A stretch of 64,000 nt of DNA from Candidatus Woesebacteria bacterium. GTDB taxonomy: Bacteria > Patescibacteriota > Microgenomatia > UBA1400 > UBA1396. The DNA is taken from the NCBI GenBank assembly GCA_963749595.1, contig CAVVNJ010000010.1:65223-129222 (forward strand), read 5' to 3'. A model generated the notes under the pieces. That model did no database searches. It saw only the letters and a program-made list of their open reading frames with translations, and was not told the DNA's origin. Positions 3,813 through 59,856 of this stretch are shown here, in pieces (the first letter of the stretch is position 1; each line of letters begins with the position of its first letter). Both the position numbers and the translations under genes were made by a program.

Positions 3813-3862
3813 TATACCGAGAGCTAATCGTTTGGGTCGCCTGATAGAACGTGAAGTCTCAC

Positions 3863-3918: not shown

Positions 3919-3980
3919 AACTCCACCAAGACCCTCAATAGGCCCTGGCGGGTTGGCGGCCGGATCTTTACACTTAGGGG

Positions 3981-5555: not shown

Positions 5556-6256
5556 AATCATTGTTGCAGTCGGCTGATGAGGCTGAGCTACTGGTTTATC
5601 TGGATAATCAGCAAGCCAATGAGGCTTTGACCAACCTGGGTTGGGATGGCTCCCTGCGCACCCCAGATTGTCCCAATCCATTTCCGGCTCAGTCCTGTTT
5701 TGTGGACACCATCATGCAGGTTGAAGCCAATGTTGGTGTGAACAAAGCTAATCAATTTATTAAGCGTCAAATTAAACAGACGGCAACGTTAAGGGGACAG
5801 CAGGTGCTGCACGAACGAACCATCGTGTTGCAGAACACCGCTGACTCCAATGCTTGGCCTGAGGGCGCGTACAAAGACTATTTTCGGCTGTTTGTAACCC
5901 AGGGTTCGCAACTATCCGCTCTGACCATAAATTCGGCGCCAGTCGACTTACGCGGGGTCAAAGTGAGCGCTGAAAAAAACAAAACCGTTTTTGGATTTTT
6001 GGTTAACGTTCCCATTAAAAGCACCGCGACGATTCAGATTTCCTATAACACGCCGGTGCCCGACGCCTCACCCCTGGTTTACGCCTTGTTTGAGCAAAAG
6101 CAGGCTGGTGCCGGTTTTGACCCCATTGAAACCAAGATTGTGATTGAAGATCGAAAAGTTTTAACCGTGGCGCCGGAGCCGAAAATCGATGGCCGGACCC
6201 TGGAGTTTGACGGCGATCGGCGCACTCACCAATATTACGCCGTTGAAGTTCGTTAG
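5495..6256 (+). CDS. DUF4012-like protein, C-terminal part (continues 3981-5555 in the -1 frame)
   Basis: This frame is open from 5426 and reads ..FFPGSTQKRDFLSAVASALFEKLF across the T6C3 run. Confidence 0.7.
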   Translation: MASALFEKLFREDTNTLLVMKSLLQSADEAELLVYLDNQQANEALTNLGWDGSLRTPDCPNPFPAQSCFVDTIMQVEANVGVNKANQFIKRQIKQTATLRGQQVLHERTIVLQNTADSNAWPEGAYKDYFRLFVTQGSQLSALTINSAPVDLRGVKVSAEKNKTVFGFLVNVPIKSTATIQISYNTPVPDASPLVYALFEQKQAGAGFDPIETKIVIEDRKVLTVAPEPKIDGRTLEFDGDRRTHQYYAVEVR

Positions 6257-7920: not shown

Positions 7921-8011
7921 GACCAGGTAGGGAACTTCTTGGCCGTTGATAATTCGCGGTTCGCCGTCGGCAAAGTGATAGCGGAGATAATAAAGCGGCG
8001 ACTGACGCTCC

Positions 8012-8590
8012 TCATGGAAGCACTTCTAGATCGGCAAAAGTGGTGCCACACTTAGGGCAGTAGTTAACGATGTAATTATCCCGATAAATCAAGCCATCTT
8101 TTTCTAGTTTCTGAAAGGTGTCAAAAACCAGGTGCAGCACTTTTTCGTCCAGGGTGAAGGTTCGGCGGTCCCAGTCGGCAGAAAAACCCAGGGCTTTCAT
8201 TTGGTCGACAATTAGGCCGGAATTTTGTTTGACGAAGGAAAAAATATCGCGATAGAGGGTTTCGCGATCAAATTGAAAGCGGGATTGACCCTTTTTCTTC
8301 AGCTCTTTTTCGTAAACAAATTGGGTTTCAAAACCGGCGTGATCGGTACCAGGAAACCAGACGGTGGGGTGACCCTGCATGCGTTTCCAGCGGATTAAGA
8401 TGTCTTGAATGACGTACATGGCATGGCCGGCGTGGAGTGAGGCGTTGGCGTTGGGTGGGGGCATGAGAATGGAGAAAGGCTCTAAATCAGATTCGTTAGG
8501 CTTAAAGGCGCCGGATTCTTCCCAGCGGCGATAAATCTGCGCCTCGTACTCCTGATGTTGGTAGGTGGTGGGAAAAACGGCCATGAGCAT
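8012..8590 (-). CDS. valS: Valyl-tRNA synthetase, N-terminal fragment
   Basis: PPPNANASLHAGHA (HIGH-type motif), WFPGTDHAGF and CPKCGTTFADLEV. It ends at a premature tga at 8012-8014. Confidence 0.9.
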   Translation of the reverse strand: MLMAVFPTTYQHQEYEAQIYRRWEESGAFKPNESDLEPFSILMPPPNANASLHAGHAMYVIQDILIRWKRMQGHPTVWFPGTDHAGFETQFVYEKELKKKGQSRFQFDRETLYRDIFSFVKQNSGLIVDQMKALGFSADWDRRTFTLDEKVLHLVFDTFQKLEKDGLIYRDNYIVNYCPKCGTTFADLEVLP

Positions 8591-8727
8591 TGATTATATC
8601 AAGGAATCATTCCTGGGTGGGATTACCGCAAGATTCCGGCAGTATTCCGGCGCAACCTATCAAACTAGATCAGTCCGGATTTTCTTCGTCTTGTCTGGAG
8701 AGCTGGCGCGCGCTAGGGTAGGTTGTC

Positions 8728-9567: not shown

Positions 9568-9858
9568 TTGATGTCAGCATTCTGGGCTCTGCCCAAGGGC
9601 GTTGGTTTTGAGTCCCAGCACGAGAAAGAGCAGATCCTGATGGTGTTGCGGCAGCATCCGGTGGTTAATCTTAAGTGGATGGCGACCGTGGTGGCTCTGC
9701 TGTTGGGTCCGGTTCTGGTCAGTCCGTTGTTTCCGTTCTTCAGCTTCTTGCCGGAGCGGTTCTTTCTTCTTCCTCAACCTGGGTTGGCTGATGTTAATTT
9801 TGGCCTATGTGATCGAAAGTATCTTGAGTTGGTACTACAATCTTTATATCATTACTGA
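9568..9858 (+). CDS. bPH (YdbT-like) membrane protein, N-terminal fragment
   Basis: The TM helix WMATVVALLLGPVLVSPLF is followed by a frame break in the ttc/ctt-rich run at 9761-9775. Confidence 0.5.
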   Translation: MMSAFWALPKGVGFESQHEKEQILMVLRQHPVVNLKWMATVVALLLGPVLVSPLFPFFSFLPERFFLLPQPGLADVNFGLCDRKYLELVLQSLYHY

Positions 9859-10123
9859 TGAGCGATTGATTGACGTCGACTTTTATTCTCTGATTTACAA
9901 ATCGGTTTCCGAGGCCAAGCTCGACAAGATCGAGGACGTGACCGCCACGACGGCCGGGGTTTTCGGGGCCATGTTCGATTTCGGTACCATTAGCGTTCAG
10001 ACCGCCGCCGAAAAAAGGGAGTTTGAGCTGGGTAGCGTGCCGCATCCGGCCAAGGTGACGAAGTTTTTGAACGAATTGATTTTGGAAGAGGAACGCGAGC
10101 GGAACGAGGGACGGGTAAGCTAG
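9791..10123 (+). CDS. bPH (YdbT-like) membrane protein, C-terminal fragment
   Basis: WYYNLYIITDERLIDVDF...ISVQTAAEKREFELGSVPHPAKV. The frame is open upstream through FFFLNLGWLMLIL. Confidence 0.6.
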   Translation: MLILAYVIESILSWYYNLYIITDERLIDVDFYSLIYKSVSEAKLDKIEDVTATTAGVFGAMFDFGTISVQTAAEKREFELGSVPHPAKVTKFLNELILEEERERNEGRVS

Positions 10124-10130
10124 GAGCAAT

Positions 10131-10410
10131 ATGTTACAGTTTGTCGGCCGGAACTATTCCTCAATTTACCCTCGTTTCCGGACGGCAGGTGCTGTGAGGG
10201 CGGCCTAAAGCTATTGTTCCTGGGATTTTTTCTGCTCTATCTGATTTTCGCCCTGATGGTAATCGACAAGTTAAGCTGATGACGCACACCATTACCGCCC
10301 CAGCGACGGCTTTTTAGCCGCCGCCAGTTGGCTGTATTTGGTTTTGCCGGCCTGGTGTTGTTTTCGCGCTCTTCACTCTGTAGCGCTTTTATTGCTATCA
10401 TGAGCCAAAG
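10131..10410 (+). pseudogene. Small two-TM membrane protein readable only across several frames
   Basis: MLQFVGRNYSS, LKLLFLGFFLLYLIFALMVI, RQVKLMTHTITAPATAF and RRQLAVFGFAGLVLF lie in different frames. Confidence 0.3.
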
Positions 10411-12783: not shown

Positions 12784-12871
12784 GAGGAATCATTCCTACC
12801 TCACCCTACGCCTGGAGGAATCAATCCAGATTGATTCCTCTAGAGGTGAGCCTCGGTAGGAATGATTCCTC
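12784..12871. repeat. Nested palindromic element / bidirectional terminator between convergent genes
   Basis: gaggaatcattcctacc at 12784-12800 is the reverse complement of 12855-12871. The inner stem pairs 12815-12825 with 12830-12840. The core aggaatcattcct also occurs at 8602-8614. Confidence 0.7.
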
Positions 12872-17296: not shown

Positions 17297-17856
17297 AAAA
17301 ACAACAATGGCTGAGCAGCTCAGCGCTATTTATTTTTGGCCTGGTCATCATGATCGCTACCCTGCGGGTCTCGCACGTGCGGGCCAGCTATGCCTCCAAC
17401 GGATTGGTGCAACAGACGCAGGAAAGCGAAACCGATCTAATTTTGGCTCAACTCACTCAATCAAGTTTGCCGGGATCGGTTCCCTACCTTTGGCAGCGGG
17501 GCTGGGAGAGGGCCGAGTTGTTATGGTTGGCGGAAAATGAAAAACCTGAGATTTGGTTGGGACGCATTGCCGACCGGGTTGAATCGGCTGAGTTAGCGGA
17601 CTCACTGGGGCGGGAAGAGTTGGCCCTATCTACTTACCTAAAGGCTTTTGGTTACCTCCATCAGGGTGCTCACACCTGTTTTGCCGAGGGCGATACTCCA
17701 GAGTATTGTGAACGAGTAACCTTTACTGCCGCCACGGACGCCTTAGCGGATTCGGTGCAGAGATTTGCCCAGTCAACTACTTCCGACGCTCTTCGGGCCA
17801 GGGCAGACAGTCTGCGTTCCCAAATTCAAGCTCTCCGGCAGCAATTCCAGTTCTAA
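17293..17856 (+). CDS. Hypothetical membrane-anchored protein
   Basis: MKKQQWLSSSALFIFGLVIMIATL signal/anchor. There is an ATGA overlap with the upstream stop. Confidence 0.6.
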   Translation: MKKQQWLSSSALFIFGLVIMIATLRVSHVRASYASNGLVQQTQESETDLILAQLTQSSLPGSVPYLWQRGWERAELLWLAENEKPEIWLGRIADRVESAELADSLGREELALSTYLKAFGYLHQGAHTCFAEGDTPEYCERVTFTAATDALADSVQRFAQSTTSDALRARADSLRSQIQALRQQFQF

Positions 17857-17901
17857 GGTTTGACCTTCCAGGCGTGAGGGTGCTGTGGGGTCTTACCCTC
17901 A
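17855..17901. repeat. REP-like element copy
   Basis: aaggtttgaccttccaggcgtgagggt followed by the hairpin tgagggt...accctca. Confidence 0.7.
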
Positions 17902-21623: not shown

Positions 21624-21650
21624 AAACCAAAGGGTCTGCTCTGAATTTAC

Positions 21651-22020
21651 AAAACTCCCCAGGAGACCAATAAGGGGTTTGTTTGCATCCACTCTGGGCA
21701 AACGGCGGCAAAGGTCGATGCTATTTACGATTGATACTCGATTCTCTGTCTGACTGATGCTCGACTTGTTACTTGATCGATATCCCTTTCATGGCCCTAC
21801 GACAATATGTACATATGTACAACAAACTCTAATACTCATTAATAGTGTCTTTCTTTCAAATCAGGATCACCGGACTTAAATTGATCGATCCTTGCCCAGA
21901 CTGGCCAGAAAACGACCCTAAACGACCCCTATTTTGGCCAAAGGGACTCCGAATGATCCCAACAACTGACCCGCTCTCGGCTCATTTAGGGGGTAGTCCG
22001 GGGTGCAAGTTGCCGGGAAG
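21651..22020. repeat. Degenerate copy (A) of the long inverted-repeat intergenic element family
   Basis: Collinear similarity to 50540-50945. Examples: tccactctgggcaaac versus tccacctgggcaaac, and gggggtagtccggggtgcaagttgccgggaag versus gggggacagtttgggaggcaaaatgctgggagg. Confidence 0.5.
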
Positions 22021-22084
22021 ATGTGTTTGCTTCGCGGCCAGGATGATCATAGAAGGTGCCAGACGCGCCGCCGCTTCGCCTTAA

Positions 22085-24925: not shown

Positions 24926-24931
24926 AGTTTT

Positions 24932-24982
24932 CCCTGGAAGGTCAAACCTTCCAGGGGTAAGTTTGAACAAGGTCAGACCTTA
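24932..24982. repeat. REP-like element copies after gap (likely terminator)
   Basis: Perfect palindrome ccctggaaggtcaaaccttccaggg at 24932-24956, plus aaggtcagacctta at 24969-24982. Confidence 0.75.
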
Positions 24983-25009: not shown

Positions 25010-25978
25010 ATGCGCCTGAAATTTCTTGTTTTTCTGGTTCTGTTTTTGGTCATCGGCGGTCTCGGCGCCTATCTTTGGTACCGTCGCTTTCGCCCCATCA
25101 CGCCCTATCCTGATTTTCAGCCGCCGATTGCCTACCGCGCCGATCCCTCCCAGTTGGTCCAAAGAATCGACGAGCTGACTAATCCCTTTCTCACCCCACC
25201 CTGTTTTGTCACCGCCACCAATACTTGTCAGTTAATCTTTATCCACCCGCCGGAATACGGAGAGAACAGATTGGAAATTCGTTCGTTTAAGGCCGCGCAA
25301 CAATCTGGCCCGACTCAATTTTTGCCTTTTGGCCAAATGTTGGTGGCCCGTAATGCTTTAACCCAACATTATTTGGACACACTGATCGGCGGCGCGGCCA
25401 GTCAGCCCTATCTGGATTTTGTTCATCAACTCCCCGGAGAGGCGGCCACCCAACAGCTTAACCCCAGTTTTATCTATGCGGTTTACGAGCATCTGTTTGC
25501 TGTCACCAGTGAAAGCCCAATCAACTCACCCCTCGCGCCGCCGGAGCTGTCGGTGCAAAAAATTGGCGAGAGTTATCAGGAGGGCAGCAACTTGTTGGCC
25601 GTGCCTGGCAGCGCCGATATTTTAATTGCTGCCCTGCAAAACAAGGACTGGTCCCCGGAAGCCAAAGCCTTAACCTACGCGCTGGCCAAGAACCTGGCGC
25701 CGGAAGTGGTGATTAAGTTTTTGGCGGAAGAGGGAGCGCTGGAGCGGCGTTATTTGGCAACCTTTGCCCCGCCAGAACTGGAATCGGTCAAGCGAGTCGA
25801 ATACGCCGGTGCCGCGGTTGGCTTGACTCAGCTCTATTCCGACGAGAATAAATCTTGGCAAGTTGCCCTGTGTCGAAATGGTTTGGCTCAGGCTTGTCGA
25901 GTTGAGGACGAGGCCTTGTTGTGTTCACCAGTGCCGCAGTTTAATGAGGATTGCCGGTTGAACCTGCTGGATTTGTAG
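25010..25978 (+). CDS. Hypothetical membrane-anchored protein
   Basis: N-terminal TM segment FLVFLVLFLVIGGLGAYLW. The tgtatact box at 24994-25001 lies 8 nt before the ATG. Confidence 0.65.
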   Translation: MRLKFLVFLVLFLVIGGLGAYLWYRRFRPITPYPDFQPPIAYRADPSQLVQRIDELTNPFLTPPCFVTATNTCQLIFIHPPEYGENRLEIRSFKAAQQSGPTQFLPFGQMLVARNALTQHYLDTLIGGAASQPYLDFVHQLPGEAATQQLNPSFIYAVYEHLFAVTSESPINSPLAPPELSVQKIGESYQEGSNLLAVPGSADILIAALQNKDWSPEAKALTYALAKNLAPEVVIKFLAEEGALERRYLATFAPPELESVKRVEYAGAAVGLTQLYSDENKSWQVALCRNGLAQACRVEDEALLCSPVPQFNEDCRLNLLDL

Positions 25979-26815: not shown

Positions 26816-26906
26816 TCAAATAATAGTCGATTATTAGCCGCTATTTCACGAAATAGTTCACGAGTTTGAGAACAGATGCTTTCTTTTGGCTAATTCCAGC
26901 TAGTCA

Positions 26907-26934
26907 CAACTTGTACAAGATGTTGTACAAGTTG
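26907..26934. promoter_or_regulatory. Perfect 12-nt inverted repeat containing two TGTACA cores (possible operator)
   Basis: caacttgtacaa-gatg-ttgtacaagttg. It lies in the 340-nt region upstream of 27160. Related TGTACA pairs occur at 21808-21821 and 35571-35588. Confidence 0.4.
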
Positions 26935-27159: not shown

Positions 27160-28449
27160 ATGCCCTGGAATCCTGATCGTGAATCACGAGAAATGTCGTC
27201 GCGGGAATTGCAAGATTCTTTGGCCGATCGAATTGCCCCTGGAACAAGGTTGAGAAAGTTTGCCCGCAAGGCGGTGCCTTTTGGTTTGGCTGGTCTGGCC
27301 GCCGTCAGTGGTCTGCGTGGTGGCGAGATGGCCAAGCAATTTGGTCTGGATGCCCGTCCGGCCTTGGCCCAGGAAAATGAGCAGGAATCGGAAAAGCACT
27401 TATTTCAGGCTACTGTGACGGTTGATGGTCTGCCGGTGTACGACAGTTCCCGGGAAGAGGCGCGGAAAATTAATGAGTTGCCGATGGGAACTTCGCTTTT
27501 TGTGGTTGGCGGCGAAGCAGACGAGAATGGTTTTATTCGTTACGTGGATGAGAATGACACGTCCCAGACCTTGGGCTTCTTGCCCTATCAGGGAATCGAG
27601 GTTGGTTTGGCGGTTATTCCTGGCGCTCCGGTTCCAGAGCGAGTGGCTTCGGCGGAACAAAATAAGTTATACCGCGCAACGGCAACGGCGGCGGTGCGCG
27701 TTCGTTCCACCCCGGAAATTATCGACGGCAACGTAGTGGACATTATGGAAAGTGGTGAAGAGGTGTTGGTGCAAGGTACTGGCTCGCAAGAGTGGAGTCA
27801 GGTCTTTAGGGAAGATGGAACGCCGTGGGGTTGGTCAGCGTCGAGGTATTTGAGTGTTGATTTGGATGAGCCGGTGGATGTGGGTTTGGATGAGGAGGAG
27901 CCGACGGGTGAATTGGCGAATGTAGTGACGAGCGTGGTGACGCAGCCGGGAATGGGAGCGGGTGAGAATGAAGATGCGAAGCCGATTTTGAAAGATGAGA
28001 GTGAGGAAGAGGAGCCGGTGCCGACTGGTGGAAGATATACCCCCGCTTTAAGTGCGGATCAGCTGAGATTTGTAACGCAAACGCTGGAAGTAAATAGTGA
28101 CGCAAAGGATTGGGCGGGACACACAATTGAAGTGCCAAGAGATCCAGATCCAAGTAGGGAGGGTATTTTCCGAGAGGTTGGTGCTCTGGAAAAGACCCAA
28201 GTGTTTATTAAGGGTCGCGTAGTGGGTATCTTTAGTATTGAAGGAATTCTTCGCGGGGAAAAAATAATTCCTGATGAACAAGAGATTTGGTATGCAGAAG
28301 TTAAAGTTGGTGAGAAGACGATGTTCTTTGCTCTGGGCTCATTGGACTTACAAGGTTGGCTTGGAATGTCTCCGACCACACCCAAGAACGATGAGGTTAG
28401 CGTAGCCACAGGAGCGTTCAATACGACGATGGAGATTTGGACGTCGTAG
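27160..28449 (+). CDS. Secreted protein with SH3b-like domain(s)
   Basis: An aaggagg RBS is present, and the RKFARKAVPFGLAGLAAVSG signal is Tat-like. YRATATAAVRVRSTPE...EEVLVQGTGSQEWSQV is SH3b-like. Confidence 0.7.
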   Translation: MPWNPDRESREMSSRELQDSLADRIAPGTRLRKFARKAVPFGLAGLAAVSGLRGGEMAKQFGLDARPALAQENEQESEKHLFQATVTVDGLPVYDSSREEARKINELPMGTSLFVVGGEADENGFIRYVDENDTSQTLGFLPYQGIEVGLAVIPGAPVPERVASAEQNKLYRATATAAVRVRSTPEIIDGNVVDIMESGEEVLVQGTGSQEWSQVFREDGTPWGWSASRYLSVDLDEPVDVGLDEEEPTGELANVVTSVVTQPGMGAGENEDAKPILKDESEEEEPVPTGGRYTPALSADQLRFVTQTLEVNSDAKDWAGHTIEVPRDPDPSREGIFREVGALEKTQVFIKGRVVGIFSIEGILRGEKIIPDEQEIWYAEVKVGEKTMFFALGSLDLQGWLGMSPTTPKNDEVSVATGAFNTTMEIWTS

Positions 28450-28742
28450 TTAAATTCTTCCAGAAGAATAAAAATGTACCAATTGTGGTGGTATTTAAGG
28501 ACGATGTTGCGAGTGATTTTGCAACCTTACCTGCAGGATGGCAGAATGATCCTCGCATTGCTCTAAATGTTCGTCTTATCGAAGGTTCTGACTCTGGTCA
28601 AATGGTGCTCATGATTGCAGGCGTTCCCGCAGGGCAGTACTTGTTTGATGAGACTTTTCCTGACAAATTAATGATCATGTTGGGTAAGACCTTTATACCA
28701 ATCCCCGATCCTCGTTTCGTTGGAACGTCCTACGGCAACTAG
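28437..28742 (+). CDS. Hypothetical protein
   Basis: ORF only (TTG start, uncertain). Confidence 0.45.
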   Translation: MDVVVKFFQKNKNVPIVVVFKDDVASDFATLPAGWQNDPRIALNVRLIEGSDSGQMVLMIAGVPAGQYLFDETFPDKLMIMLGKTFIPIPDPRFVGTSYGN

Positions 28743-28775
28743 CCAGGCGGTCTTGTCTTTTGGTAAGATGTATTT

Positions 28776-29417
28776 GTGCGCAGAAAACCGTCGATTATTT
28801 TCTTATTCATTCTGGTTATTGGACTTGGCTTAGGCTACACATTTCTCCATTCATTTCCGAGAGTTTCGGTAAGGGGAACACAGCCGATTGCTCTACCATG
28901 GAGTGTTCGGGCTGCTGTAGATGTAAAGGATCAGAGCGGAGTAGTACTTTCACAGAAACCCGGATACTACGTTGGTCTGGGTAAGTTTCTGCGGTTATTC
29001 CGTGATAAGAGTGATTATTTGTGGCTATCGACGCTGGTGCCGTTTGGTATTCATAACTACCTGCTTGGTACTGGCGATAGTGTTCCATTTGCCGATGTTG
29101 AGGTTAGTAGGGGTTTAGGTGAAATAACTTATCTCATAAACGATATTAATTACTCATCCATCTCAACTAATGACCTTCAGAGCAGGTTGTCGGTGGGCGA
29201 TACTATTTTGATAGAGATTGCTTTGCCAGAGGAGTCAAATATTGGTACTTATCAGGGTTTTCAGAGTCAATGTACGGATGAAAGATGTCGCGGCTACTTC
29301 GACCTCACTCTTGATGTGGAGAGTAACCGACGAATGATTGAATCCAAAAAAATAATCAAGGAGATTATCTCTCCGGATACGAGACTGATTCTCTCTAAAG
29401 AAGAAGATGAGATTTAA
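28776..29417 (+). CDS. Hypothetical membrane-anchored protein
   Basis: GTG start 6 nt after tggtaagat. N-terminal TM segment IIFLFILVIGLGLGY. Confidence 0.55.
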   Translation: MRRKPSIIFLFILVIGLGLGYTFLHSFPRVSVRGTQPIALPWSVRAAVDVKDQSGVVLSQKPGYYVGLGKFLRLFRDKSDYLWLSTLVPFGIHNYLLGTGDSVPFADVEVSRGLGEITYLINDINYSSISTNDLQSRLSVGDTILIEIALPEESNIGTYQGFQSQCTDERCRGYFDLTLDVESNRRMIESKKIIKEIISPDTRLILSKEEDEI

Positions 29418-30354
29418 GACCTTCCTTATTAGCGCATTGGTTTTTGTATTTTTTTTAGTTGGCGGTTCTCTTAGGCCGTCGCTCGTTTGGGCGCAAAGTT
29501 GTAGTGGAACATACTCTGGCACAACATCACAGGGTGCGTGTAGTTACAATGCGTCTGCTCAGCTTTATACCTGTAGTAGTACAGACTATAGTTACAGCAC
29601 GTCATGTATCCAGATGACTTCTGGTTCTGGCGGCTGTGTGCATGAAGTTCTATCAGACAGTAATTGTTATCTAGCCGATGGTGGTCGAACTTGTATTGTT
29701 CAGGGTGGGGGTAGCGGTGGTTTCTTCACTTCCGGCTGCACCTACACCGCTGGCGGAGGTGGAGGAACTCCAACCCCCACTCCTTCCGGCGGCACCGGTG
29801 TCCCTGGGCCTTGCGGCGGCTGTAGCAGTTGCGGTGCCCCATCCGATCAGTGTCGCGTTGATGCCATCGGAAACTGTGTTTGGGACCCGGGAAGTTGTAG
29901 TGTGATTGTGGTCTGTAGCCCCACCTGCGCCCCCAAACTATGCGGCCAGAGCGATGGTTGCGGCGGTACTTGTGCCGCTACGGACGACGGCGCTCCGGCC
30001 ACGCCGGTCATTTCCGCCCCTGCCGATGGCTCGGTCGTTACTCCCAATGCCAACGGCCGGATCTCGGTTATCTGGGCTGCGGTCGCCAAAGCCGAGGGTT
30101 ACCGGATTGAACTTTACGCCTCCGCCAATCCGGACGTGGACTGGACGACCACTTCTGGTTCTCTATCGGGAGGAGATCAGTCCTCGTATGGCAAGAGTCG
30201 GGCCTTTGATAGCTCTACTACCACCGACTGGCGAAGCCGCAAAACGGGACGGCGGTTTCCGGCGCAGCTTGGATCGGTCAGGATCTGGGTCGAGACCGGG
30301 AAATTGTCGCCGGTTAAGTCAGCAAAGCACGAATGCCAACAGGCTCGCGGGTGA
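29407..30354 (+). CDS. Large secreted Cys-rich / discoidin-domain surface protein, N-terminal fragment
   Basis: Signal peptide, Cys-rich modules, a PT linker, then AFDSSTTTDW (start of an F5/8-type-C domain). The frame is lost at about 30230. Confidence 0.7.
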   Translation: MRFKTFLISALVFVFFLVGGSLRPSLVWAQSCSGTYSGTTSQGACSYNASAQLYTCSSTDYSYSTSCIQMTSGSGGCVHEVLSDSNCYLADGGRTCIVQGGGSGGFFTSGCTYTAGGGGGTPTPTPSGGTGVPGPCGGCSSCGAPSDQCRVDAIGNCVWDPGSCSVIVVCSPTCAPKLCGQSDGCGGTCAATDDGAPATPVISAPADGSVVTPNANGRISVIWAAVAKAEGYRIELYASANPDVDWTTTSGSLSGGDQSSYGKSRAFDSSTTTDWRSRKTGRRFPAQLGSVRIWVETGKLSPVKSAKHECQQARG

Positions 30355-30915
30355 CCTCTGCTCGTCCAGTACAGCGACAATGGCTCTTCCTGGACTACCC
30401 GAAACGCTTAACTTTGGTGGCGGATGGTCTTCTTAATTCTTATCCTCTAACCGGCAGTGCCGCCGCACCGTACTGGAGGTTGCTGGCCAATTCCAATACG
30501 GCAGTAGCACTCCGTTGGGCAGGTATTATGATTTCGAACTGCGGACTGCCGGCGAAGCTATTTCACCGACTGCCCTTACTCAGGCTGGAACGAGCTATTC
30601 GCTTCGGTGCCGGTGGCGCGGGATTATACGGTTCATGTCCGTTCGACAATACCACTTGCCCACCTACTGATAGCTCTCAGTGGAGTAGTTGGGTCAGTTT
30701 CTGGCGCCGCCAGTACGGTGACCGGAACGGTGTATTATGACGCCACCAATACTGCTAACTTAGTTGGCGGGGTTTGTACCGGAACCGGCTCGGCCTTGCC
30801 GACTGGCGGTGCCAGTGGTGATTTAGCCACAATCGGTGGAGCCCGTAGCGGCGGCGCCTTGGGGCCAATGCCGCCACTCGCGCTTTTGACGACAACAATG
30901 CGACCTACTGGATGA
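30231..30915 (+). pseudogene. Middle part of the same surface protein, readable only by repeated frame changes
   Basis: AKPQNGTAVSGAAWIGQDLG, VTSAR, VQYSDNGSSWTT, TLVADG...APYWRLLANSNT and ...GDLATIGGARSGGALG lie in alternating frames. The last break is in a G4 run at about 30861. Confidence 0.5.
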
Positions 30916-32357
30916 GCAGCCAGACTGGCGCCGCCGTCTTAAACGCTGCTTGGATCGGTCAGGACTTCGGAGCAGGTAACGAGACGGAGGTTACCAGCTT
31001 CTCTATCCGCCAGTACGGTAATTCGGCGGTCCGCGTGACCAGCGTCCATGTTGAGCACTCGGACAACGGAACCAACTGGACTCAGCTGCAGAATATGGCG
31101 GTAGCCAATAACGCCAATACCAACACTTATACCCTCAACAACTCGGCCAATCACCGCTACTGGCGCTTGCGGGCTGGCACTGCTACTTCGCAAGGTTGGG
31201 GCTGGGTGGTTAATGAAGTCGAGTTTTTCTCTGGCACTGGTGGCGCTGGCGGGGGCGTGGGCACTTTGTCGATTATTGGGCGGGATTACGCTCAGTATTC
31301 CGATCAGGTGACCGTAGCCGCCGACGGCAGTTACTCGGTTAATCTGCCCTATAGTGCCAGTGGCACCAATCAGGTTTCCCTGGTACTAGATACGGCGACC
31401 GATTACGTCTGTTCCTGTCCGGCGGGTTGTACCTATTCCAGTGTGAACGCTCCATTATCCGGTCTAGACTTTTACATTACCGATGCGCGTGAGGCTTGGT
31501 TCCAGGCGATCGGTGGTGGCATAGCTGCTTTAGCTAGCCAGGGTACGGTCTTGACTAATCCCATTCCGGCCGGCTGTTCTGGCAGTTGTAAGCCCTATTT
31601 GCTAACCAGGTCGGGTGCGGTGGCGGGTTCTTCTGGAGTGATGGTCACGGGCGGCGGCAGTATCGATTTATCGCGGGAGACGGGTGAGCAGACTCTCCAA
31701 TTAGACGAGGATAACGCTCGTGTGATTGGACGAGTCAGCCCGAAGATCGCTCAGGAGAATTATGCCTACTTCCAGCGGCTCTATAAGTTTCCCGCTAATC
31801 CGACCAGTGATTTTACGACCACGGGGACAGATGCGGCCAAGCCGACCGGGACGCCGGTTAATGCCGGGGTGGAGGCCTTTTATCACAACGACGACTTGAC
31901 GATACTGGATCCCTGGCAAATCGATGCCGGTGAGTCAATCGTAATTTTTGTCGCGGGCGATTTAAACATTAACAATACGATTCTGGTGGCTCAGACCGGA
32001 TTTTTGGCCTTTATTGTCCAAGGTGACATCATTATCGATTCTTCAGTAGGGCACGTGGATCCGACGGCTGGTACGGCGGGTAATAGTGTGGTGGAGGGGG
32101 TTTACGTGGCTAATGGCAAGTTGCTGCTACCTACCCGTGGTACGGCTGCCGGGGGCGACTATAAGTTTGTCGGTGAGGGAACGTTTGTTGGTTGGGGCGG
32201 AGTCGAGCTAGACCGCGATTATGCCGATACCGGTACGCGCGGCACCCTCAACACTAGTAATCCCGCTGAAGTTTTCCGCTACCGTCCCGATTTTGTGGTC
32301 CGGGCGCCCAGCCGTCTCAAGGTTCCCCGCTATACCTGGCGCGAAGTGGCTCCCTAG
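30912..32357 (+). CDS. Same surface protein, C-terminal fragment (discoidin domain + beta-rich C-terminal region)
   Basis: The upstream in-frame ANAATRAFDDNNATYW continues into AAWIGQDFG...YWRLRAG...VNEVEFF. The frame is open from 30849. Confidence 0.75.
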   Translation: MSSQTGAAVLNAAWIGQDFGAGNETEVTSFSIRQYGNSAVRVTSVHVEHSDNGTNWTQLQNMAVANNANTNTYTLNNSANHRYWRLRAGTATSQGWGWVVNEVEFFSGTGGAGGGVGTLSIIGRDYAQYSDQVTVAADGSYSVNLPYSASGTNQVSLVLDTATDYVCSCPAGCTYSSVNAPLSGLDFYITDAREAWFQAIGGGIAALASQGTVLTNPIPAGCSGSCKPYLLTRSGAVAGSSGVMVTGGGSIDLSRETGEQTLQLDEDNARVIGRVSPKIAQENYAYFQRLYKFPANPTSDFTTTGTDAAKPTGTPVNAGVEAFYHNDDLTILDPWQIDAGESIVIFVAGDLNINNTILVAQTGFLAFIVQGDIIIDSSVGHVDPTAGTAGNSVVEGVYVANGKLLLPTRGTAAGGDYKFVGEGTFVGWGGVELDRDYADTGTRGTLNTSNPAEVFRYRPDFVVRAPSRLKVPRYTWREVAP

Positions 32358-32381
32358 TTTTTCTGAAAAAGTGCCAACCCT

Positions 32382-32790
32382 TGGAGATATATATCTCCCC
32401 GCCAACTTGCGCCCTAGGTGGGTTGGTAATGGCACCGAAAAGATCAGTTGGGAGGAACATTCGGGGACCGTTTACGTCCAGAATGGTTATTTGGGGACTT
32501 TTTCTGAGCCATCTCAGTGCCGATTTAAAACTAGGGACTCTTTGGGGACTGTTTGAGTCCAAGGAATTATGTCGAGTAAGGTTGTATCCCTGATTGTCGA
32601 GTTGGTCCACATAAGGCACGAGGAAAGTCCCCGATTTAAAGTCGGCACTCTAAAGGCACCGATAAAGTCCTTATTCGACCAACCAGGACCAAACCAGGAC
32701 CAATGGAGGAACATTAAGGGAACATCTCAGGATCATTTACGAACTATTTCGGGCGCAAATCGCTGGGAGGATATAGATGTCCGAACTCGT
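32382..32790. repeat. Copy B of the long inverted-repeat intergenic element (MITE-like)
   Basis: The left end is ggagatatatatctccccgccaacttgcgccc. The reverse complement of the right end is cacgagttcggacatctatatcctcccagcgatttgcgccc, nearly identical to the left end of copy C. Confidence 0.65.
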
Positions 32791-32823
32791 GAAGATAATT
32801 GTGAAAAACCAGACAAGCCAGAG

Positions 32824-33177
32824 CTATCTTCGTTTTATGGACGTCACATCCACCACCAACGTAAATTTATTCTGGCAATCAGGTTGAGCGTTGGGCGAAC
32901 ACAACGGCTGGCCGTAAAAAAAACGCGGCTTGGCTTCCGCGCGAATCTTCTGCTCGCAAAACTCCGCTAAATCGACTGGCGCCGAGGCAATCGCCGTGGT
33001 TTGAAAGTGACCTTTTTTTTCATATTCCAAGCGATACTCATTACGGCATAATAATTTGTATTCCGCTTCCGGATCGGCCAAATCGATCATCGATTCGGTA
33101 TTAACCATCAGAGGCTGGGTTAGTAAAAACAGCAGAACTAGAATCCCGCCCCAAATAAATAACCGTGGTACTTTCAT
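32824..33177 (-). CDS. Hypothetical secreted protein
   Basis: Signal/anchor MKVPRLFIWGGILVLLFLLTQ. Confidence 0.55.
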   Translation of the reverse strand: MKVPRLFIWGGILVLLFLLTQPLMVNTESMIDLADPEAEYKLLCRNEYRLEYEKKGHFQTTAIASAPVDLAEFCEQKIRAEAKPRFFYGQPLCSPNAQPDCQNKFTLVVDVTSIKRR

Positions 33178-47610: not shown

Positions 47611-49329
47611 TCGACGCTGTCTTCGACGCAAATAAATTAGGGTGACACCCAAGAGAGTGGCCGCGATGGCCAGCGAAAAAGGCCAGGCCGTTACGGTTTC
47701 CTCAACAATAACCGGGCCGGTTTGAGCATTGCGAATGGTCGCTCGGATTCGGTATGGTCCGAAAGCAAAGAGCGGGTCATAGGTAAAGGGAGTGGCCATG
47801 GCAGAGCGGGGGTCGTCCCGCCGTTGCCGGGCCGCAAAAATTTCTCGGCTGCTGTTGGCCAAAATCCGGTCCGGTAGACCTGGTTGCTCGTGGACGATGT
47901 GGTCGCGCCAATCAAGGACCACAATTGAAAGATCCGGAGCGGCGACGGTCTGGCTGGTGTTTTCTACTTGGGGACGAACAATTAAAGTTTGCAGCGAATC
48001 GATTAGTTTGGGCAAACGAAGAAAATTTATTTTCCAAGATAGGGGTTCAAGATTGTCGCTGGTGACGCGGACTAAAAGGTTGGCCGCGACGGCGCCGCGC
48101 GCCTGGGCGCCGGAATCGTTGAGAGGATCTTCCGCGGTTGGTTTTGAGGAGAGCAGAAGCATAAAGTACCAATCCCGGCGCGCGGCGTCACTGGGAATAT
48201 CCAATCCCAAGACCAGTTGTTGACTGGTATGACTGGGCAGGACGAAGGGTTGGTTGAGTTGGCGATCGGCATTTTGCATTTTGGCATAAGGAAAAGTATT
48301 GGTTTCCAACAACATTGGATAGCCGGTCTGGCCATCAGCGCCAAAATCCTGCAGCGTGGGGACAATCTCGACGCCGGTGGCGCCGCTGTTTTCCAAAAGA
48401 AAAGCCTGAGTGACTAGTTTCCCAGGTTGGACCGCAATTTCTACCACCGTTGGGCTGAGGGACAATTCCCAAGGTGCGGTTTGTTGGGCGCGCGCGGCGC
48501 GCGGTACGGCCAACAGGGAAATTCCCATGAGCGCGGTGATTAAGATTCCGGCTAAACTTCGCCGCGCCGCGCGCGCCAGCCAAATCCAACCTGCCACCAC
48601 CATGGCCAAGGAGGCCCATTGAGCGATGGTCAGACCCCAGGGTCCAGCGGCTGAATCAAGTCGTAGCAACTCGAGTGAGAAACGCACGGTGCCATATCCC
48701 ACCAGATACATTCCGGTATACAGTCCGCTACCCATTTGAAAAAAAGGAGCCTTGGTTTTTCTTTGATAACGCCATAATAAATACAGTCCCAAGCCGATTA
48801 ACAAGGTGGCAATCGACTCATAAAGAAACAAAGGGTGATAGCGTTCGACTGATGAATATTGTGGCAGCCGGTGCGCCGGGTCGATCTTGATTGCCCAGGG
48901 CAAGGAGGTGGGCCGACCATACAGTTCTTGATTAAAATAGTTGCCCCACCGACCGATAGCCTGGCCGAAAGGAACGGCGACAAAAATGGCATCCAGCAGT
49001 TCGGACCAGCGCCAGGGCATTCGGGTTAATCGTTTTCCCAACCAGAGTCCGATCAGACCGCCGATGATGGCGCCGTAAATTCCCAAACCCCCCTGCCAAA
49101 TATATAGCGCCTCAAGAGGGTGTGATTGATAGAGGTGCCAGTCGGTAAAAACGTGATAAATCCGGGCGCCAATTAGTCCACCGATAAAGATGTTCCACGC
49201 CAGGAGGGTCAGACCTTCAGAGGTTTTACCTCTGGAAGGTCTGACCTTCTCGGCCAAGATGTGTTCGGCTAGCGAAAAGGAGGCCAAAAAAGCTATCCCA
49301 ATAATTAATCCATAAGGCGAGAAATTCAT
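47590..49329 (-). CDS. lgt: Prolipoprotein diacylglyceryl transferase fused to a roughly 300-aa extracytoplasmic C-terminal extension
   Basis: LYIWQGGLGIYGAIIGG and FGQAIGRWGNYFNQELYGRPT. The extra domain ends in a TM segment plus RRRQRR. Confidence 0.85.
   Translation of the reverse strand: MNFSPYGLIIGIAFLASFSLAEHILAEKVRPSRGKTSEGLTLLAWNIFIGGLIGARIYHVFTDWHLYQSHPLEALYIWQGGLGIYGAIIGGLIGLWLGKRLTRMPWRWSELLDAIFVAVPFGQAIGRWGNYFNQELYGRPTSLPWAIKIDPAHRLPQYSSVERYHPLFLYESIATLLIGLGLYLLWRYQRKTKAPFFQMGSGLYTGMYLVGYGTVRFSLELLRLDSAAGPWGLTIAQWASLAMVVAGWIWLARAARRSLAGILITALMGISLLAVPRAARAQQTAPWELSLSPTVVEIAVQPGKLVTQAFLLENSGATGVEIVPTLQDFGADGQTGYPMLLETNTFPYAKMQNADRQLNQPFVLPSHTSQQLVLGLDIPSDAARRDWYFMLLLSSKPTAEDPLNDSGAQARGAVAANLLVRVTSDNLEPLSWKINFLRLPKLIDSLQTLIVRPQVENTSQTVAAPDLSIVVLDWRDHIVHEQPGLPDRILANSSREIFAARQRRDDPRSAMATPFTYDPLFAFGPYRIRATIRNAQTGPVIVEETVTAWPFSLAIAATLLGVTLIYLRRRQRRLSESSA
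49205..49250. repeat. REP-like palindrome embedded in frame in the lgt coding sequence
   Basis: agggtcagaccttcagaggt-ttt-acctctggaaggtctgaccttct. It encodes EKVRPSRGKTSEGLT in the loop after TM1. Confidence 0.7.
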
Positions 49330-50418: not shown

Positions 50419-50502
50419 GAGTTAATTCTAGAGATTATTTTCGGTGGAGACAACCCAAATAAAGGGCGTAACTCCTGATTGGATTTTTCACGACCATCTT
50501 CA

Positions 50503-50968
50503 CGAGTTTGGGATCTATATCTCCCCAGCGATTTGCCTCCCAAACTGTCCCCTCCAGAGACCTCTAATTACTCCTAAAGGTGACCCCAAACAGGTCCTAA
50601 TTCAAACCTTATGGGCAATAGAGGTCCAGTACTAGGTTAGTTTGAGTCCACCTGGGCAAACAAGGGCCATTTAGAGACCGTCGATCGGTCAAAAACCAAA
50701 GATACTGTCAGGATGAACTAGATTGCATAGTAGTCGATAAGCGGTTAGTACAACAGTTAATTGAACCCGCTAATGGGAACCATTCGCCCATTCTTGACCC
50801 TGATTTGCCCGTCGTGGCCAAGAAGGCACCGGGAACTGACCCTTTTTAACCCAAAGGTCCGTTATTGCACCCCAAGCAACCCTAAAATAAGACCTGTTCG
50901 GGGTGACTTTGGGGGACAGTTTGGGAGGCAAAATGCTGGGAGGGTATATATCCCCAGCCATAAACTCG
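50503..50968. repeat. Copy C of the long inverted-repeat intergenic element (best-defined, MITE-like)
   Basis: The left end is cgagtttgggatctatatctccccagcgatttgcctcccaaactgtcccc. The reverse complement of 50912-50968 is cgagtttatggctggggatatataccctcccagcattttgcctcccaaactgtcccc. Confidence 0.7.
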
Positions 50969-53122: not shown

Positions 53123-53127
53123 AGCCT

Positions 53128-53705
53128 TTACTCTAGCACGACGTAGGGCAACTCCTCGGATAGAGTAATGATGGTCTTTTTGATCGCGGCGGTTTCTTCG
53201 TTGCTAAGGGATTGGAGAACGTACGCCTGACCGGGAATGGTACGTTGGCCGCCTCGACTATCGACGCCGATACGCGCCACCCAAAACTGATTGGTGTTCA
53301 GGTGTAGCGCAGACTATTGAGACCGTTGTGTATCTTCGGTCCGGAGTCGAACTGCAGCTTGTATTGTCCGGAGGTCAAATCGAGATCGTCGTGGAACACG
53401 ATCAGGTTCGGGGTAGGGTTCGCAATCCGTGACTGGGATCGCGGTGTAAGTACCAGCGCGCCGCGGCGGCGACGGAGCGGCCGGATTCGTTCATGAACGT
53501 TTGTGGTTTGAGCAAGATCAGCTCGTCGCCGCCGCGGCGCAACCGCAAAACCTCGGCCTCAATTTTTTTCTCCATTTTCCATTCCAATTTAACGTTGGAT
53601 CGGACCAAAGTCGGACCAGTTCGTCGAGCGCCAGCCAGCCGACGTTGTGGCGGGAGCGGTGATAGGCATCACCCGGATTGCCGAGGCCAACCAGGAGATA
53701 GCGAC
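53128..53705 (-). pseudogene. pth: Peptidyl-tRNA hydrolase, at least 3 frame changes and no clear start codon
   Basis: [46 protein letters not shown]...HNGLNSL and ARIGVDSRG...EETAAIKK lie in different frames. Confidence 0.7.
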
Positions 53706-54890: not shown

Positions 54891-54914
54891 AGTTCTCTAT
54901 ACTATAATACCTCT

Positions 54915-56150
54915 ATGACTTGGCAGAGCGAGGTAATTCGTCAGGATTTTCCGATTTTATCCCGACAGGTTCATGGGCAGCCATTGATTTATCTCGATAA
55001 CGCGGCCACGACGCATAAACCGGAGGCGGTGATTGGAGCGATCAGCGATTACTATCGTCACCACAACTCGAATGTCCACCGCGGGAGTTCATACGTTGGC
55101 CGATGAGAGCACGCAGATTTATAGCGAGGCCCGGCGAGACGATCGCCGGTTTTTTTGGGGCGACAGCCGGAAGAATTGATCCTGACTCGCAACGCGACCG
55201 AGGCGCTCAACCTGGCCGCGCTGGGCTGGGGTCGGCAATGGGTTGAGGCCGGGCGACGCGATCGCGGTCACGATCATGGAGCACCACAGCAACTTTGTCC
55301 CCTGGCAGGAGTTGGCGCGGGAGAAGGGCGCTCAGTTCGTGGTTTTGCCGTTGACGGACGACGGTCGTTTAGACCAGACGGCCGCGCTGCAGATTATGGA
55401 TGAGTTAGGCGACAAATTAAAGGTCCTGGCGCTGACCCACGTTTCTAATACTTTGGGCACGGTCAACCCGGTCGAGAAGATCACCGCTCATCTTAGTCGA
55501 AAATCCTGGCGTTCCCGCGTGCTGGTCGTCGCCGATATTGCCCAAAGCGCGGCTCGCATTCCCCTTTCCTCGATTGCTCTGGGCGTCGACGCTCTGGCTT
55601 TCTCCGGTCATAAGATCTATGGTCCGATGGGCATTGGCGGTTTAATTGTTCAACGCAAGTCGATTGGCAGAGTTCCAACCGGTTTTGTTTGGCGGCGGCA
55701 TGATCGGCCGCGTCGGCGAATCCGAGACCACCTTACGCCGAGGATCTTCAGGATCGTTTTACCGCCGGAACTCCTGATGTAGCCAGCGCGGCCGGTCTGG
55801 CCGCCGCCTTCGACCTACTGAACAAAATTGGTCGGAGGCCGTTTTGGTCCACGAGCAGGAAATCACTCAGTACGCCTACGAGCAGCTTAGTCGGTTGCCG
55901 GAAATCGAGTTGGTCGGTCCCCAGCCGGACGCCGGACGACTCGGCTCAGTCGCTTTCCTGTATAAAGGAGTGCATGCCCATGACGTGGCTCAGATTCTCG
56001 ACCGCTCCGGGGTGGCGGTTCGCTCGGGTCATCACTGCACGATGCCACTGCATACTGTATTGTGGCTGGCCAGCGACCACCCGCGCCAGTTTTGCGATTT
56101 ATACCACAGCCGAGGAAATCGATGCGCTGGTGGCGGCGCTGATCAAGTAA
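54915..56150 (+). pseudogene. sufS: Cysteine desulfurase SufS-type, at least 8 frame changes
   Basis: LIYLDNAATTHKP, TRNATEALNL, IMEHHSNFVPW, LTHVSNTLGT, FSGHKIYGPMGIGG, FTAGTPDVA and RSGHHCTMPL are spread over frames 0,1,2,0,1,2,0,2,0. Confidence 0.8.
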
Positions 56151-56171
56151 AAAAGGTATTCCGACATTAAT

Positions 56172-56589
56172 ATGGACGATCTTTACCGGGACCACATTCT
56201 AGATCATGCCGAAAATCCCGCCGCGAGGGTAAGTTTGCCCCATCCCACCCACACCGGCAGTTATGGCAATCGCTCCTGCGGCGACGAGATCGACCATTGA
56301 TCTAGAGATTATTGACGGCCGAATCATCGCGGTTCGTTGGCGCGGCGAGGGTTGCGTGATTAGTCAAGCGGCGGCCAGTTTGCTAGCCGAGGAAATCGAA
56401 AATCTGCCGATTGAAGAAGTATTATCCTGGGAAGATGACGCGGTGCTGGACGAGCTCGGTTTGCCGGAGGTTTCTTACGCCCGCCGGCCTTGCGCTCTGA
56501 CGTTTATCAATACCCTCCGCCACATCCTGAGGGTCAGACCCTCCAGGCGTGAGGGTACCCCAGGGTCAGACCCTCAGGAGGAAGGGTGA
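56172..56589 (+). CDS. sufU: SufU/IscU-type Fe-S scaffold, one frame break at about 56292 and a repeat-encoded C-terminal tail
   Basis: MDDLYRDHILDHAENP...GNRSCGDEI, then (+1) TIDLEIIDGRIIAVRWRGEGCVISQAAAS. Confidence 0.7.
56527..56578. repeat. REP-like element (variant core GGGTCAGACCC, two copies) forming the 3' end of the sufU ORF
   Basis: ctgagggtcagaccctccaggcgtgagggtaccccagggtcagaccctcagg. Confidence 0.65.
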
Positions 56590-59814: not shown

Positions 59815-59856
59815 GGTTAAACCTTCCAGGCGTGAGAATGGGCAAGATCTGATCTT
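59813..59856. repeat. REP-like element copy plus a small palindrome between convergent genes
   Basis: aaggttaaaccttccaggcgtgaga, then aagatc-t-gatctt. Confidence 0.6.

Follow-up and report, generated by a model that had tools for sequence, protein, structure and literature searches.

Copy B, the repeat element considered here, lies in the DNA between the stop codons of two convergent genes, 30912-32357 (+) and 32824-33177 (-), in a 64-kb stretch of DNA that is referred to as the window throughout. The source organism is a Patescibacteria (CPR) bacterium. A pgk scan of species-representative genomes returned six close relatives at 65–79% identity, which carry the label Patescibacteria or are mislabeled as "uncultured Pseudomonadales" MAGs, and the more distant pgk matches include WWE3, Saccharibacteria, and Peregrinibacteria. 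At its start, the window carries dnaN, rnpA, yidC, and jag, and it therefore adjoins the probable origin. The original prediction had placed the element between two convergent genes for secreted proteins. The convergent arrangement is correct, and the 117-aa protein on the right has an N-terminal hydrophobic segment. The 481-aa protein on the left lacks such a segment as called, and its secretion is indicated through a 704-aa homolog in the relative L005, which has a signal-peptide-like N-terminus.

Copy B is a real, noncoding, hairpin-shaped repeat with matching inverted ends, and it is one of three copies in the window (Table 1). Its left terminus reads ggagatatatatctccccgccaacttgcgccc from 32383, and cacgagttcggacatctatatcctcccagcgatttgcgccc is obtained when 32749-32791 is read as the reverse complement. 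The coordinates, ends, and modules that had been predicted are all present within 1–2 nt. The terminal inverted repeats (TIRs) are 34 nt long in B and 32–34 nt across the ends of B and C, and the first 16 nt of the R-type end of B, GGAGATATATATCTCCCCGCCAACTTGCGCCC, form a perfect palindrome. An nhmmer profile was made from both ends of B and both ends of C; in the 64 kb, it recovers just those four, with E = 3e-8 to 1e-7, which puts the end similarity above background, and it adds one weak match (E = 0.02) where copy A ends on the right. A degenerate end pattern matches five times in the window compared to 0.16 expected matches.

Table 1. Features of the repeat family and their positions in the window.
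Feature	Position (strand)	Description
Copy B, whole element	32383..32782 (.)	400 nt; imperfect palindrome of two homologous arms of ~200 nt each
Left TIR of B, "R-type", GGAGATATATATCTCCCCGCCAACTTGCGCCC	32383..32416 (+)	nhmmer end profile, E = 1.4e-7; pattern match
Right TIR of B, "L-type", GGACATCTATATCCTCCCAGCGATTTGCGCCC	32749..32782 (-)	nhmmer, E = 3.1e-8
TTTGGGGACTNTTT boxes, R-type arm of B	32460..32554 (+)	32460-32473, 32490-32503, 32533-32554; direct-repeat family D2
Symmetric interior island of B	32516..32649 (.)	AGTGCCGATTTAAA at 32516-32529 opposite TTTAAAGTCGGCACT at 32635-32649; self-alignment
11-nt tandem units, L-type arm of B	32677..32741 (+)	GGACCAAACCA, GGACCAATGGA, GGAACATTAAG, GGAACATCTCA, GGATCATTTAC
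Conserved motif just outside the L-type end of B	32784..32808 (-)	TTTTTCACAATTATCTTCACGAGTT; TTCACRA repeated at 12-nt spacing
Copy C	50484..50955 (+)	flank motif 50484-50509; L-type end 50510-50542; R-type end 50922-50955
Copy A, decayed	21640..22033 (+)	between pfkB and pgk; left boundary approximate
Solo outside motif, TTCACGAAATAGTTCACGAGTT	26845..26866 (+)	no recognizable element alongside

The symmetry of B extends over its whole length. An end-to-end alignment of B with its reverse complement reaches a local score of 35, compared to 12.8 +/- 2.5 in 200 dinucleotide shuffles (z = 9.1), and six control segments range from z = -1.2 to 0.7. A profile of the arms matches B at 32380-32582 (+) and at 32584-32784 (-). 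The element C covers ~50510-50954 (445 nt), lies in the opposite orientation to B, and is flanked by divergent genes. Its self-complementarity reaches z = 7.5, with arms of 58 nt that are 78% complementary. The right end of B matches the left end of C in reverse complement, with 82% identity over 62 nt that include ~28 nt outside of the element (E = 2e-10), and B is therefore inverted relative to C, in agreement with the original prediction. The L-type end of B is near-identical to the left end of C and is 84% complementary to 50513-50544.

Copy A had been counted as a further member of the family, and its R-type end (21999-22030) bears this out, as does a blastn match to B (E = 6e-7). A is nevertheless far more decayed than had been implied. 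Nothing more than this end and interior boxes such as CCACTCTGGGCAAAC can be recognized, and its self-complementarity is at background (z = 0.6). The right arm of A is one of the five arms from which the arm profile was built, so that its match to this profile is not independent. The profile, the pattern count, and blastn agree that B is a copy of a repeated inverted-repeat element.

Each element takes on the form of two ~200-nt arms that are joined tail to tail, and all five clear arms of A, B, and C align with each other (the left arm of A partly). The columns of this alignment are 47% identical on average, and positions that never vary occur in the terminus and in several of the interior boxes. 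The terminus has a consensus of ~32 bp, GGRNATMTATAYCYYCCCRSCRWYTTGC, and is followed inward by GGGAC/GGACT-type boxes and tandem units of ~11 bp. Identities among the arms lie at ~45–55%, and the interiors of the elements share ~42–45%, compared to 82% over 62 nt at the ends. The right end of B and the left end of C are L-type ends; the left end of B and the right ends of C and A are R-type ends, which resemble each other more loosely. The two termini are thus consistently different, which gives the element a polarity. The arm most similar to the R-type arm of C is the R-type arm of A, at 55%, ahead of the partner arm within C itself (45%).

The conservation continues beyond one end of the element. 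A motif of ~25–28 nt, TTTTTCACRANNATCTTCACGAGTT, lies outside of the L-type end and is common to B and C, where the sequence beside B matches 50484-50511 beside C at 86%. As an exact pattern, the motif is found three times in the window, compared to 0.24 expected matches; copy A has no conserved motif of this kind. The third match stands alone at 26845 (Table 1). It was considered as the mark of a fourth copy, "D", and this was rejected, as the adjacent DNA is not significantly similar to an arm (z <= 2 in the expected orientation; profile E = 0.36). On the opposite strand, the same DNA reaches z = 3.0 against one of the arms. A conserved stretch of 25–28 nt outside of the L-type end, which also occurs solo at 26845, is not predicted for a simple cut-and-paste MITE.

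The inside of the arms is constructed from short boxes. In the self-alignment of B, the inverted module agtgccgatttaaa (32516-32529) pairs with tttaaagtcggcact (32635-32649), and direct modules are present as TAATGGCACCGAAAA and TAAAGGCACCGATAA and as GGAACATTCGGGGACCGTTTACG and GGAACATCTCAGGATCATTTACG. Inverted partners of the TTTGGGGACTNTTT boxes can be seen by eye in the sequence at ~32622-32633 and ~32662-32673. The interiors of A, B, and C together contain ten GGACT/AGTCC words compared to 1.4 expected (p = 2e-6), eight GGGAC/GTCCC words compared to 1.3, and seven GGACC/GGTCC words compared to 1.3. The claim that the interior carries inverted modules, direct modules, and many GGGAC/GGTCC words is thereby confirmed. 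A tandem period of 11 nt is detected by TRF at 32677-32703 in the L-type arm of B, where it coincides with a family of direct repeats at 11-nt spacing, and again at 32534-32555 in the R-type arm. Five 11-nt units of the L-type arm take up 32686-32741. The lag-11 autocorrelation of the L-type arm has a z of 4.9. Among 318 overlapping 400-nt segments of the window, the strongest 11-nt periodicity belongs to 32401-32800, that is, to B (z = 5.0), and the segments over A and C rank third and fifth. The fourth rank is taken by the region 9800-10400, which has no similarity to the elements. Between B and C, the boxes differ in sequence, number, and orientation.

This architecture could also be that of a fixed, functional protein-binding site on the DNA, which might be centromere-like, nucleoid-organizing near the origin, or a large operator. 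The palindromic, 11-bp phased boxes would then wrap around, or be coated by, a putative DNA-binding protein. The 11-nt periodicity that is strongest in B and high in A and C, and the repetition of the boxes in direct and inverted orientation, are in line with such a site. Iteron centromeres with 11-bp units, for example, parC of plasmid R1, show a similar phasing. The ends have been kept while the interiors drifted to ~45%, a pattern that suggests constraint and not copies that were made recently. In the 64 kb in view, none of the three copies is more than ~50 kb away from the likely origin, and the window has no canonical parS. A fixed site is nonetheless unlikely. Five relatives lack the elements at the corresponding junctions, and none is present in 1.27 Mb of fetched loci, although a core function would be expected to be shared more widely. 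The sequence, number, and orientation of the boxes vary from B to C, and no partner protein can be identified nearby. A related pair of proposals appears quite unlikely to us as well. The elements could be undescribed functional palindromic sites of the CPR, with ~11-bp phased GGGAC-type boxes that are bound by a putative host protein close to the origin, for instance, in a centromere-like role; or the 200-nt arm and the outside motif together could be the true mobile unit, which would move by an undescribed mechanism without target duplication.

A coding function can be dismissed. No open reading frame (ORF) is shared across A, B, and C in a six-frame comparison, and a protein-coding gene was rejected as the identity of the element, because the six-frame matches are short, mirror the shared DNA, and lead to no real protein relative. 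The 80-aa translation of the right half of B was compared with 1.8 billion cluster representatives (~15 billion proteins) and found no real relative; its one strong match is the ORF itself, and the remaining matches are driven by the repeats. Likewise, the sole database relative of the 133-aa ORF of B is the same ORF as called in the source assembly, and the ORF over the left part of C has no words in common with anything. The internal ORFs are hence artifacts of the repeated DNA, just as the original prediction held.

A further reading assumes a function at the level of RNA, in which B would be a structured noncoding RNA gene or a long-hairpin 3′UTR or terminator that is selected as RNA. Long hairpins are indeed predicted on both strands of B and C. 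The RNA fold of C has z-scores of -8.7 (+ strand) and -5.8 (- strand), and those of the two strands of B are -2.5 and -3.0; such hairpins are, however, a trivial consequence of the palindromic element. The inner terminal stem differs between B and C and is complementary in each of them (GCGCCC/GGGCGC in B; in C, CCTCCCAAACTGTCCCC with its complement), and B sits where two convergent transcripts would have to terminate, with no other terminator-like site between those genes. The comparative data point the other way. It had been suggested to fold each strand and to compare conserved helices. A, B, and C share just a weak consensus fold (-19.6 kcal/mol), and the covariation term of RNAalifold is unfavorable (+6.4). 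In the stem, G:T mismatches are in balance with A:C mismatches (17:14 in B, 13:18 in C), so that wobble-type mismatches show no strand bias, and two arms of one element are hardly more alike than arms of different elements. By these three tests, a conserved RNA structure is not supported. A known RNA family was ruled out by Rfam, in which the matches of the window at the gathering threshold are two tRNAs elsewhere and none in the elements, and in which nothing is found inside of the elements even at E <= 10, where one weak match to a snoRNA model (E = 6.7) lies outside of C. Scans for promoters and terminators at the element ends are at or below the level of shuffled sequences, and the ends thus offer no promoter-like site for an RNA gene. 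The orientation relative to the neighboring genes is inconsistent, and the 11-nt tandem units and the direct repeats across the arms are features of a DNA-type element. Selection as RNA is therefore very unlikely. Each of the three copies has its own gene context, with convergent genes around one, divergent genes around another, and co-directional genes around the third, for which reason a cis-regulatory element is not expected either.

The junctions of related genomes show what the locus looks like without the element. In L083 and L084, which share 82–84% identity with the window in the 444-aa protein, the 117-aa ortholog is followed by the next convergent gene after 1–2 nt, so that neither the element nor a gene in its place is present. 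In L008, the homologs of the outer 481-aa and 444-aa genes are convergent and 44 nt apart. The gap between pfkB and pgk, in which copy A is found, measures ~90 nt in L005 and 478 nt in the window. Searches with profiles and the pattern found no arm, terminus, or outside motif in the 84 fetched loci of relatives (1.27 Mb). By this comparison, the elements are extra, lineage-specific DNA, and the view of B as an inserted segment is upheld by L083, L084, and L008 insofar as rearranged junctions allow; the relatives with element-free junctions are at 65–84% amino-acid identity and provide no empty site at the nucleotide level.

In a further proposal, B would be one end of a larger unit. Such a unit of ~5.9 kb would comprise the cluster of secreted-protein genes (27160-32357) and be delimited by two outside motifs, one at 26845 (+) and one at 32805 (-), which face each other in inverted orientation. 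In L083 and L084, the cluster is missing at this place, and the 117-aa gene abuts a homolog of the 322-aa protein (25010-25978); moreover, in L001, from the sample that also yielded L083, a close homolog of the F5/8-domain gene has a different genomic setting. The more distant L005 and L008, however, keep the F5/8 homolog between the same outer genes, and the cluster is therefore ancestral at this position. The DNA beside the solo motif is not element-like, the shared motif has just 22–28 nt, and C has no partner motif. A composite unit is accordingly highly improbable.

Another candidate mechanism is movement as single-stranded DNA. B would then be a non-autonomous, PATE- or BIME-like element rather than a DDE MITE, and a Y1 transposase (IS200/IS605-type or REP-associated) would recognize small, putative hairpins at its termini. 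Several properties of the family are reminiscent of this: no target-site duplication is seen, the ends are polar (L-type and R-type), each terminus contains a short palindrome (for example, GGAGATATATATCTCC), and the conserved sequence abuts one end only, similar to the left ends of IS200/IS605, where the target and guide region abut one side. A Y1_Tnp gene is also located at the corresponding junction of L005 (Pfam score of 28.7 bits at a cut-off of 23). Its more natural partner, though, is the other, REP-like repeat family with GGTCAGATCC-type stems that it adjoins. A separate REP-like family of short palindromes in the window (GAAGGTCAGACCTTC stems) fits a Y1 partner, and the REPs as such, better than B and C do, and the window encodes no Y1 transposase. 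The ends of IS200/IS605 are not 32-nt inverted repeats, their targets have 4–5 nt and not ~25 nt, and the conserved flank is absent at copy A. Taken together, transfer by a Y1 enzyme is rather unlikely.

Searches of other collections turned up no further member of the family. The exact end pattern has no match in 596 Gbp of species-representative genomes and, with two patterns, none in viral contigs; in metagenome contigs, it has one chance match inside of an ORF of an AT-rich, phage-like contig. With blastn, B has no match among phage records and C none among plasmid records. The family has not been seen in any other sequence searched and is, as far as these collections reach, a previously unrecorded repeat family in a CPR genome. 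Because the end-pattern scans found no further member, it cannot be tied to a known insertion sequence (IS).

Two other sequencing runs contain the organism as well, as identical proteins are found there on Logan short-read contigs. The ends of these contigs were placed in window coordinates by means of the gene coordinates on the contigs. Two contigs from two samples end at 32749, which is the inner edge of the L-type end of B. At C, a single contig, from one of the samples, breaks off at 50514, after five bases of the L-type end. Another two, from two samples, approach C from the right, run through the R-type end and the right arm, and stop at 50630. The contig that ends at 50514 stops exactly after GGGAT, which is common to both ends, and for this reason an inversion, or presence and absence, of the whole element was considered. 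Identical break points in independent samples point to the structure of the assembly graph and not to chance. Logan unitigs are presumably built with k = 31, in which case a contig would reach 30 nt into an exact repeat. If k is indeed 31, the implied shared block is 50485-50659; it opens with the first bases of the outside motif and extends over the L-type end and the greater part of the L arm, and in B it would run inward from 32778. The breaks thus hint that the L-type half has additional near-identical copies at other sites of the genome; local hypervariability at 50515-50629 would explain them equally well. An inversion, or presence and absence, of the whole of C is excluded at detectable frequency, as the contigs of two samples cross its right boundary unbroken. 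The contigs thereby speak indirectly against an inverton at C: there is no branching over the right repeat and arm, and no invertase occurs among the scanned ORFs of the window.

The interpretation that we prefer, with a probability that we put at about one half, is that B is a lineage-restricted, foldback-type, MITE-like element that is non-autonomous and would be moved in trans. MITEs are defined by a small size, terminal repeats, and the property to form hairpins (PMC11602168, PMC10969869), and those of prokaryotes measure ~50–800 bp (PMC11602168). The MITE-like reading is based on the size of the elements, their missing coding capacity, the TIRs, the hairpin, the intergenic sites in any orientation, the restriction to one lineage, and the conserved ends. 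B and C, with 400 and 445 nt, respectively, lie in the size range, contain no transposase gene and no shared ORF, and carry TIRs of 32–34 nt at all four ends, where 10–15 bp or more are demanded of a MITE. In the proposed mechanism, a transposase that is encoded elsewhere in the genome would bind to both termini. The same transposase would probably also bind to the phased boxes on one face of the helix, which would thus act as additional transposase-binding sites behind the terminus, and would subsequently move the element into intergenic DNA.

Four points set the family apart from a clean member of the MITEs. The first is the target-site duplication of 2–10 bp, which is found neither at B nor at C beyond chance with either definition of the boundary. 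The longest flank match is 5 nt within +/-10 nt of the boundary, which is common among 300 random controls. By eye, C has an 8-nt direct repeat, CGACCATC, 11–12 nt outside of its ends, which has no counterpart at B. Target-site duplications decay with age (PMC10969869), and their absence is therefore weak as a null result. The second point is the partner enzyme: a Pfam scan of ~75 ORFs of the window found no transposase or recombinase, and no longer element that is bounded by the same ends is present in the window. The third concerns the copies themselves. Two intact copies (B and C) and one decayed copy (A) are visible in 64 kb, and these few copies are very divergent. The fourth is the conserved motif outside of one end.

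Mobile and repetitive DNA in Patescibacteria (CPR) has barely been described. No paper on MITEs or intergenic repeat elements in this group was found in the literature, and a survey of MITEs in ~1,700 prokaryotic genera does not mention CPR lineages (PMC11602168). As CPR genomes are small and tightly packed, a noncoding palindrome of 400 nt that recurs in three places within 30 kb stands out. A MITE would mark a transposase system that is yet to be identified and would explain the local synteny and assembly breaks in this lineage, and a conserved protein-binding array would give a lead to chromosome organization where parS-type sites are not evident. In practical terms, the 133-aa gene call over B in the source assembly (P0022) is spurious and constitutes an annotation error.

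Among the described systems, the hairpin MITEs Correia/NEMIS of Neisseria, ERIC/IRU of enterobacteria, and QMITE of Coxiella come close to the B/C family. They are likewise small, noncoding, intergenic, and present in multiple copies, have TIRs of 20–35 nt, can form a hairpin over their full length, and occur in any orientation to the neighboring genes. In contrast to them, the B/C family is larger than most (400–445 nt), has no detectable target-site duplication, and has consistently different ends, a ~25-nt motif outside of one end, and 11-nt tandem units in the arms; no parent IS is known for it, and it has no similarity in the collections searched.

The PATEs and the REP/BIME elements, which are moved by Y1 enzymes, share with B and C the absence of a target-site duplication, the polar ends, the potential for terminal hairpins, and the one-sided flank. 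A PATE has subterminal hairpins in place of inverted ends, inserts 3′ of a target of 4–5 nt, and has a Y1 TnpA or TnpB as its partner. The missing duplication, the polarity, and the mini-palindromes of B and C would fit a PATE, whereas the 32-nt ends and the ~25-nt flank do not, as PATEs and REP/BIME elements have no 32-nt TIRs. REPs are GC-rich palindromes of 20–40 nt that are often clustered and go along with a RAYT gene in the genome, and in B and C, an arm of 200 nt that ends in a terminus of 32 nt forms the unit. The parC site of plasmid R1, in which 11-bp direct repeats are bound by ParR, resembles the family in its 11-bp phasing and in the two blocks around a center. The B/C family differs from it in being chromosomal, in its several divergent copies and nonuniform boxes, in having no adjacent par genes, and in its absence from relatives.

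Long inverted arms with phased sub-repeats behind a conserved terminus are characteristic of the eukaryotic foldback (FB) elements, the IR-DR members of the Tc1 group, and, in bacteria, the multi-site ends of Tn7, Mu, and Tn402. In these systems, the sub-repeats usually represent several transposase-binding sites per end. The B/C family differs in having no known transposase, in arms that are ~50% alike, and in sub-repeats that change from copy to copy. Overall, the family is best filed with elements of the MITE/foldback kind, with some atypical traits, and represents a modest, lineage-specific finding.

The 481-aa gene on the left side of copy B (A, B and C being the three copies of a palindromic, MITE-like, non-coding element) starts with an F5/8 type C domain and encodes no signal peptide. 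Its homologues in two loci from relatives (L005 and L008) are ~705 aa long and carry both a signal peptide and a Cys/Gly-rich N-terminal region, and the alignment of the 481-aa protein with them is restricted to the C-terminal ~365 aa. The gene is either fragmented or has had its N-terminus replaced. The source assembly annotates a 133-aa protein (P0022) from an ORF that crosses the right arm of B with its terminus and extends antisense to the neighboring 117-aa gene; this ORF is spurious. When translated, the 11-nt repeat run inside B weakly matches the database protein P0023 (200 aa), which is built of SQDGLRTVSGQ repeats. P0023 probably reflects 33-nt repeats that correspond to three 11-nt units containing GGAC, and the similarity may be due to relatedness or to coincidence.

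The conserved flank motif that lies just outside the L-type end of B and C also occurs alone. This solo copy (TTCACRA-N5-TTCACGAGTT) is located 29 nt past a YafQ-like toxin gene and has no adjoining element. It faces the motif adjacent to B, and the ~5.9 kb between them hold a cluster of secreted-protein genes. At its center, copy A carries the perfect palindrome TGTACATATGTACA, which consists of 2.1 units of ATATGTAC, and a similar TTGTACAAG word pair is found at ~26911-26934. A short-read contig from the same organism starts at position 21804.

The window opens with dnaN, rnpA, yidC and a jag/KhpB-like gene and therefore adjoins a likely replication origin. The cumulative GC skew runs upward through most of the window. 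Two genes are split: the leucyl-tRNA synthetase gene is divided into two ORFs ~90 nt apart, which could be due to an intervening sequence, an assembly error or a frameshift, and the class-V aminotransferase (cysteine desulfurase-like) gene comprises at least two ORFs that are preceded by a 352-nt stretch without assignment. The genes called on other contigs from this organism include a peptidyl-tRNA hydrolase gene that falls within the window, and they start C's right-hand neighbor at 51112, giving 150 aa versus 160 aa for the longest ORF.

Coordinates of the features, in the window unless a locus is named
Feature	Positions	Strand
481-aa gene	30912-32357	+
Homologue, L005	15594-17708	
Homologue, L008	16577-18697	
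P0022	32569-32970	+
Solo flank motif	26845-26866	
Copy A central palindrome	21805-21821	
TTGTACAAG word pair	~26911-26934	
dnaN to jag/KhpB-like gene	124-3400	
Leucyl-tRNA synthetase	6253-8590 (ORFs 8012-8590, 6253-7920)	-
Class-V aminotransferase	54891-56170 (ORFs 55243-55782, 55844-56170)	
Peptidyl-tRNA hydrolase	53127-53573	-
Second-family palindromes	3853-3920, 17855-17901, 24930-24982, 49189-49249, 56532-56576, 59813-59857	
Second-family palindromes, further sites	8602-8633, 12784-12871	
Y1_Tnp ORF, L005	17748-18287	-

A second repeat family, unrelated to the A/B/C elements, occupies sites at the ends of genes or between them. It is made up of short palindromes whose stems read, for example, GAAGGTCAGACCTTC, together with the conserved linkers CCAGGCGTGAG or CCAGAGG. 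The same architecture is present in three loci from relatives (L003, L006 and L007), but with other stem words (AGGGTGTAACCCT, AGGATGATCCTTC). In L005, the homologues of the genes flanking B's region are separated by a 429-nt gap, within which lies a 179-aa ORF matching Y1_Tnp (IS200-like transposase; 28.7 bits, cut-off 23), and a GGGTCAGATCC-type palindrome adjoins this ORF. The ORF is probably a REP-associated transposase that belongs to the second family, which itself looks REP-like, with stems that vary and a layout that is kept across genera.
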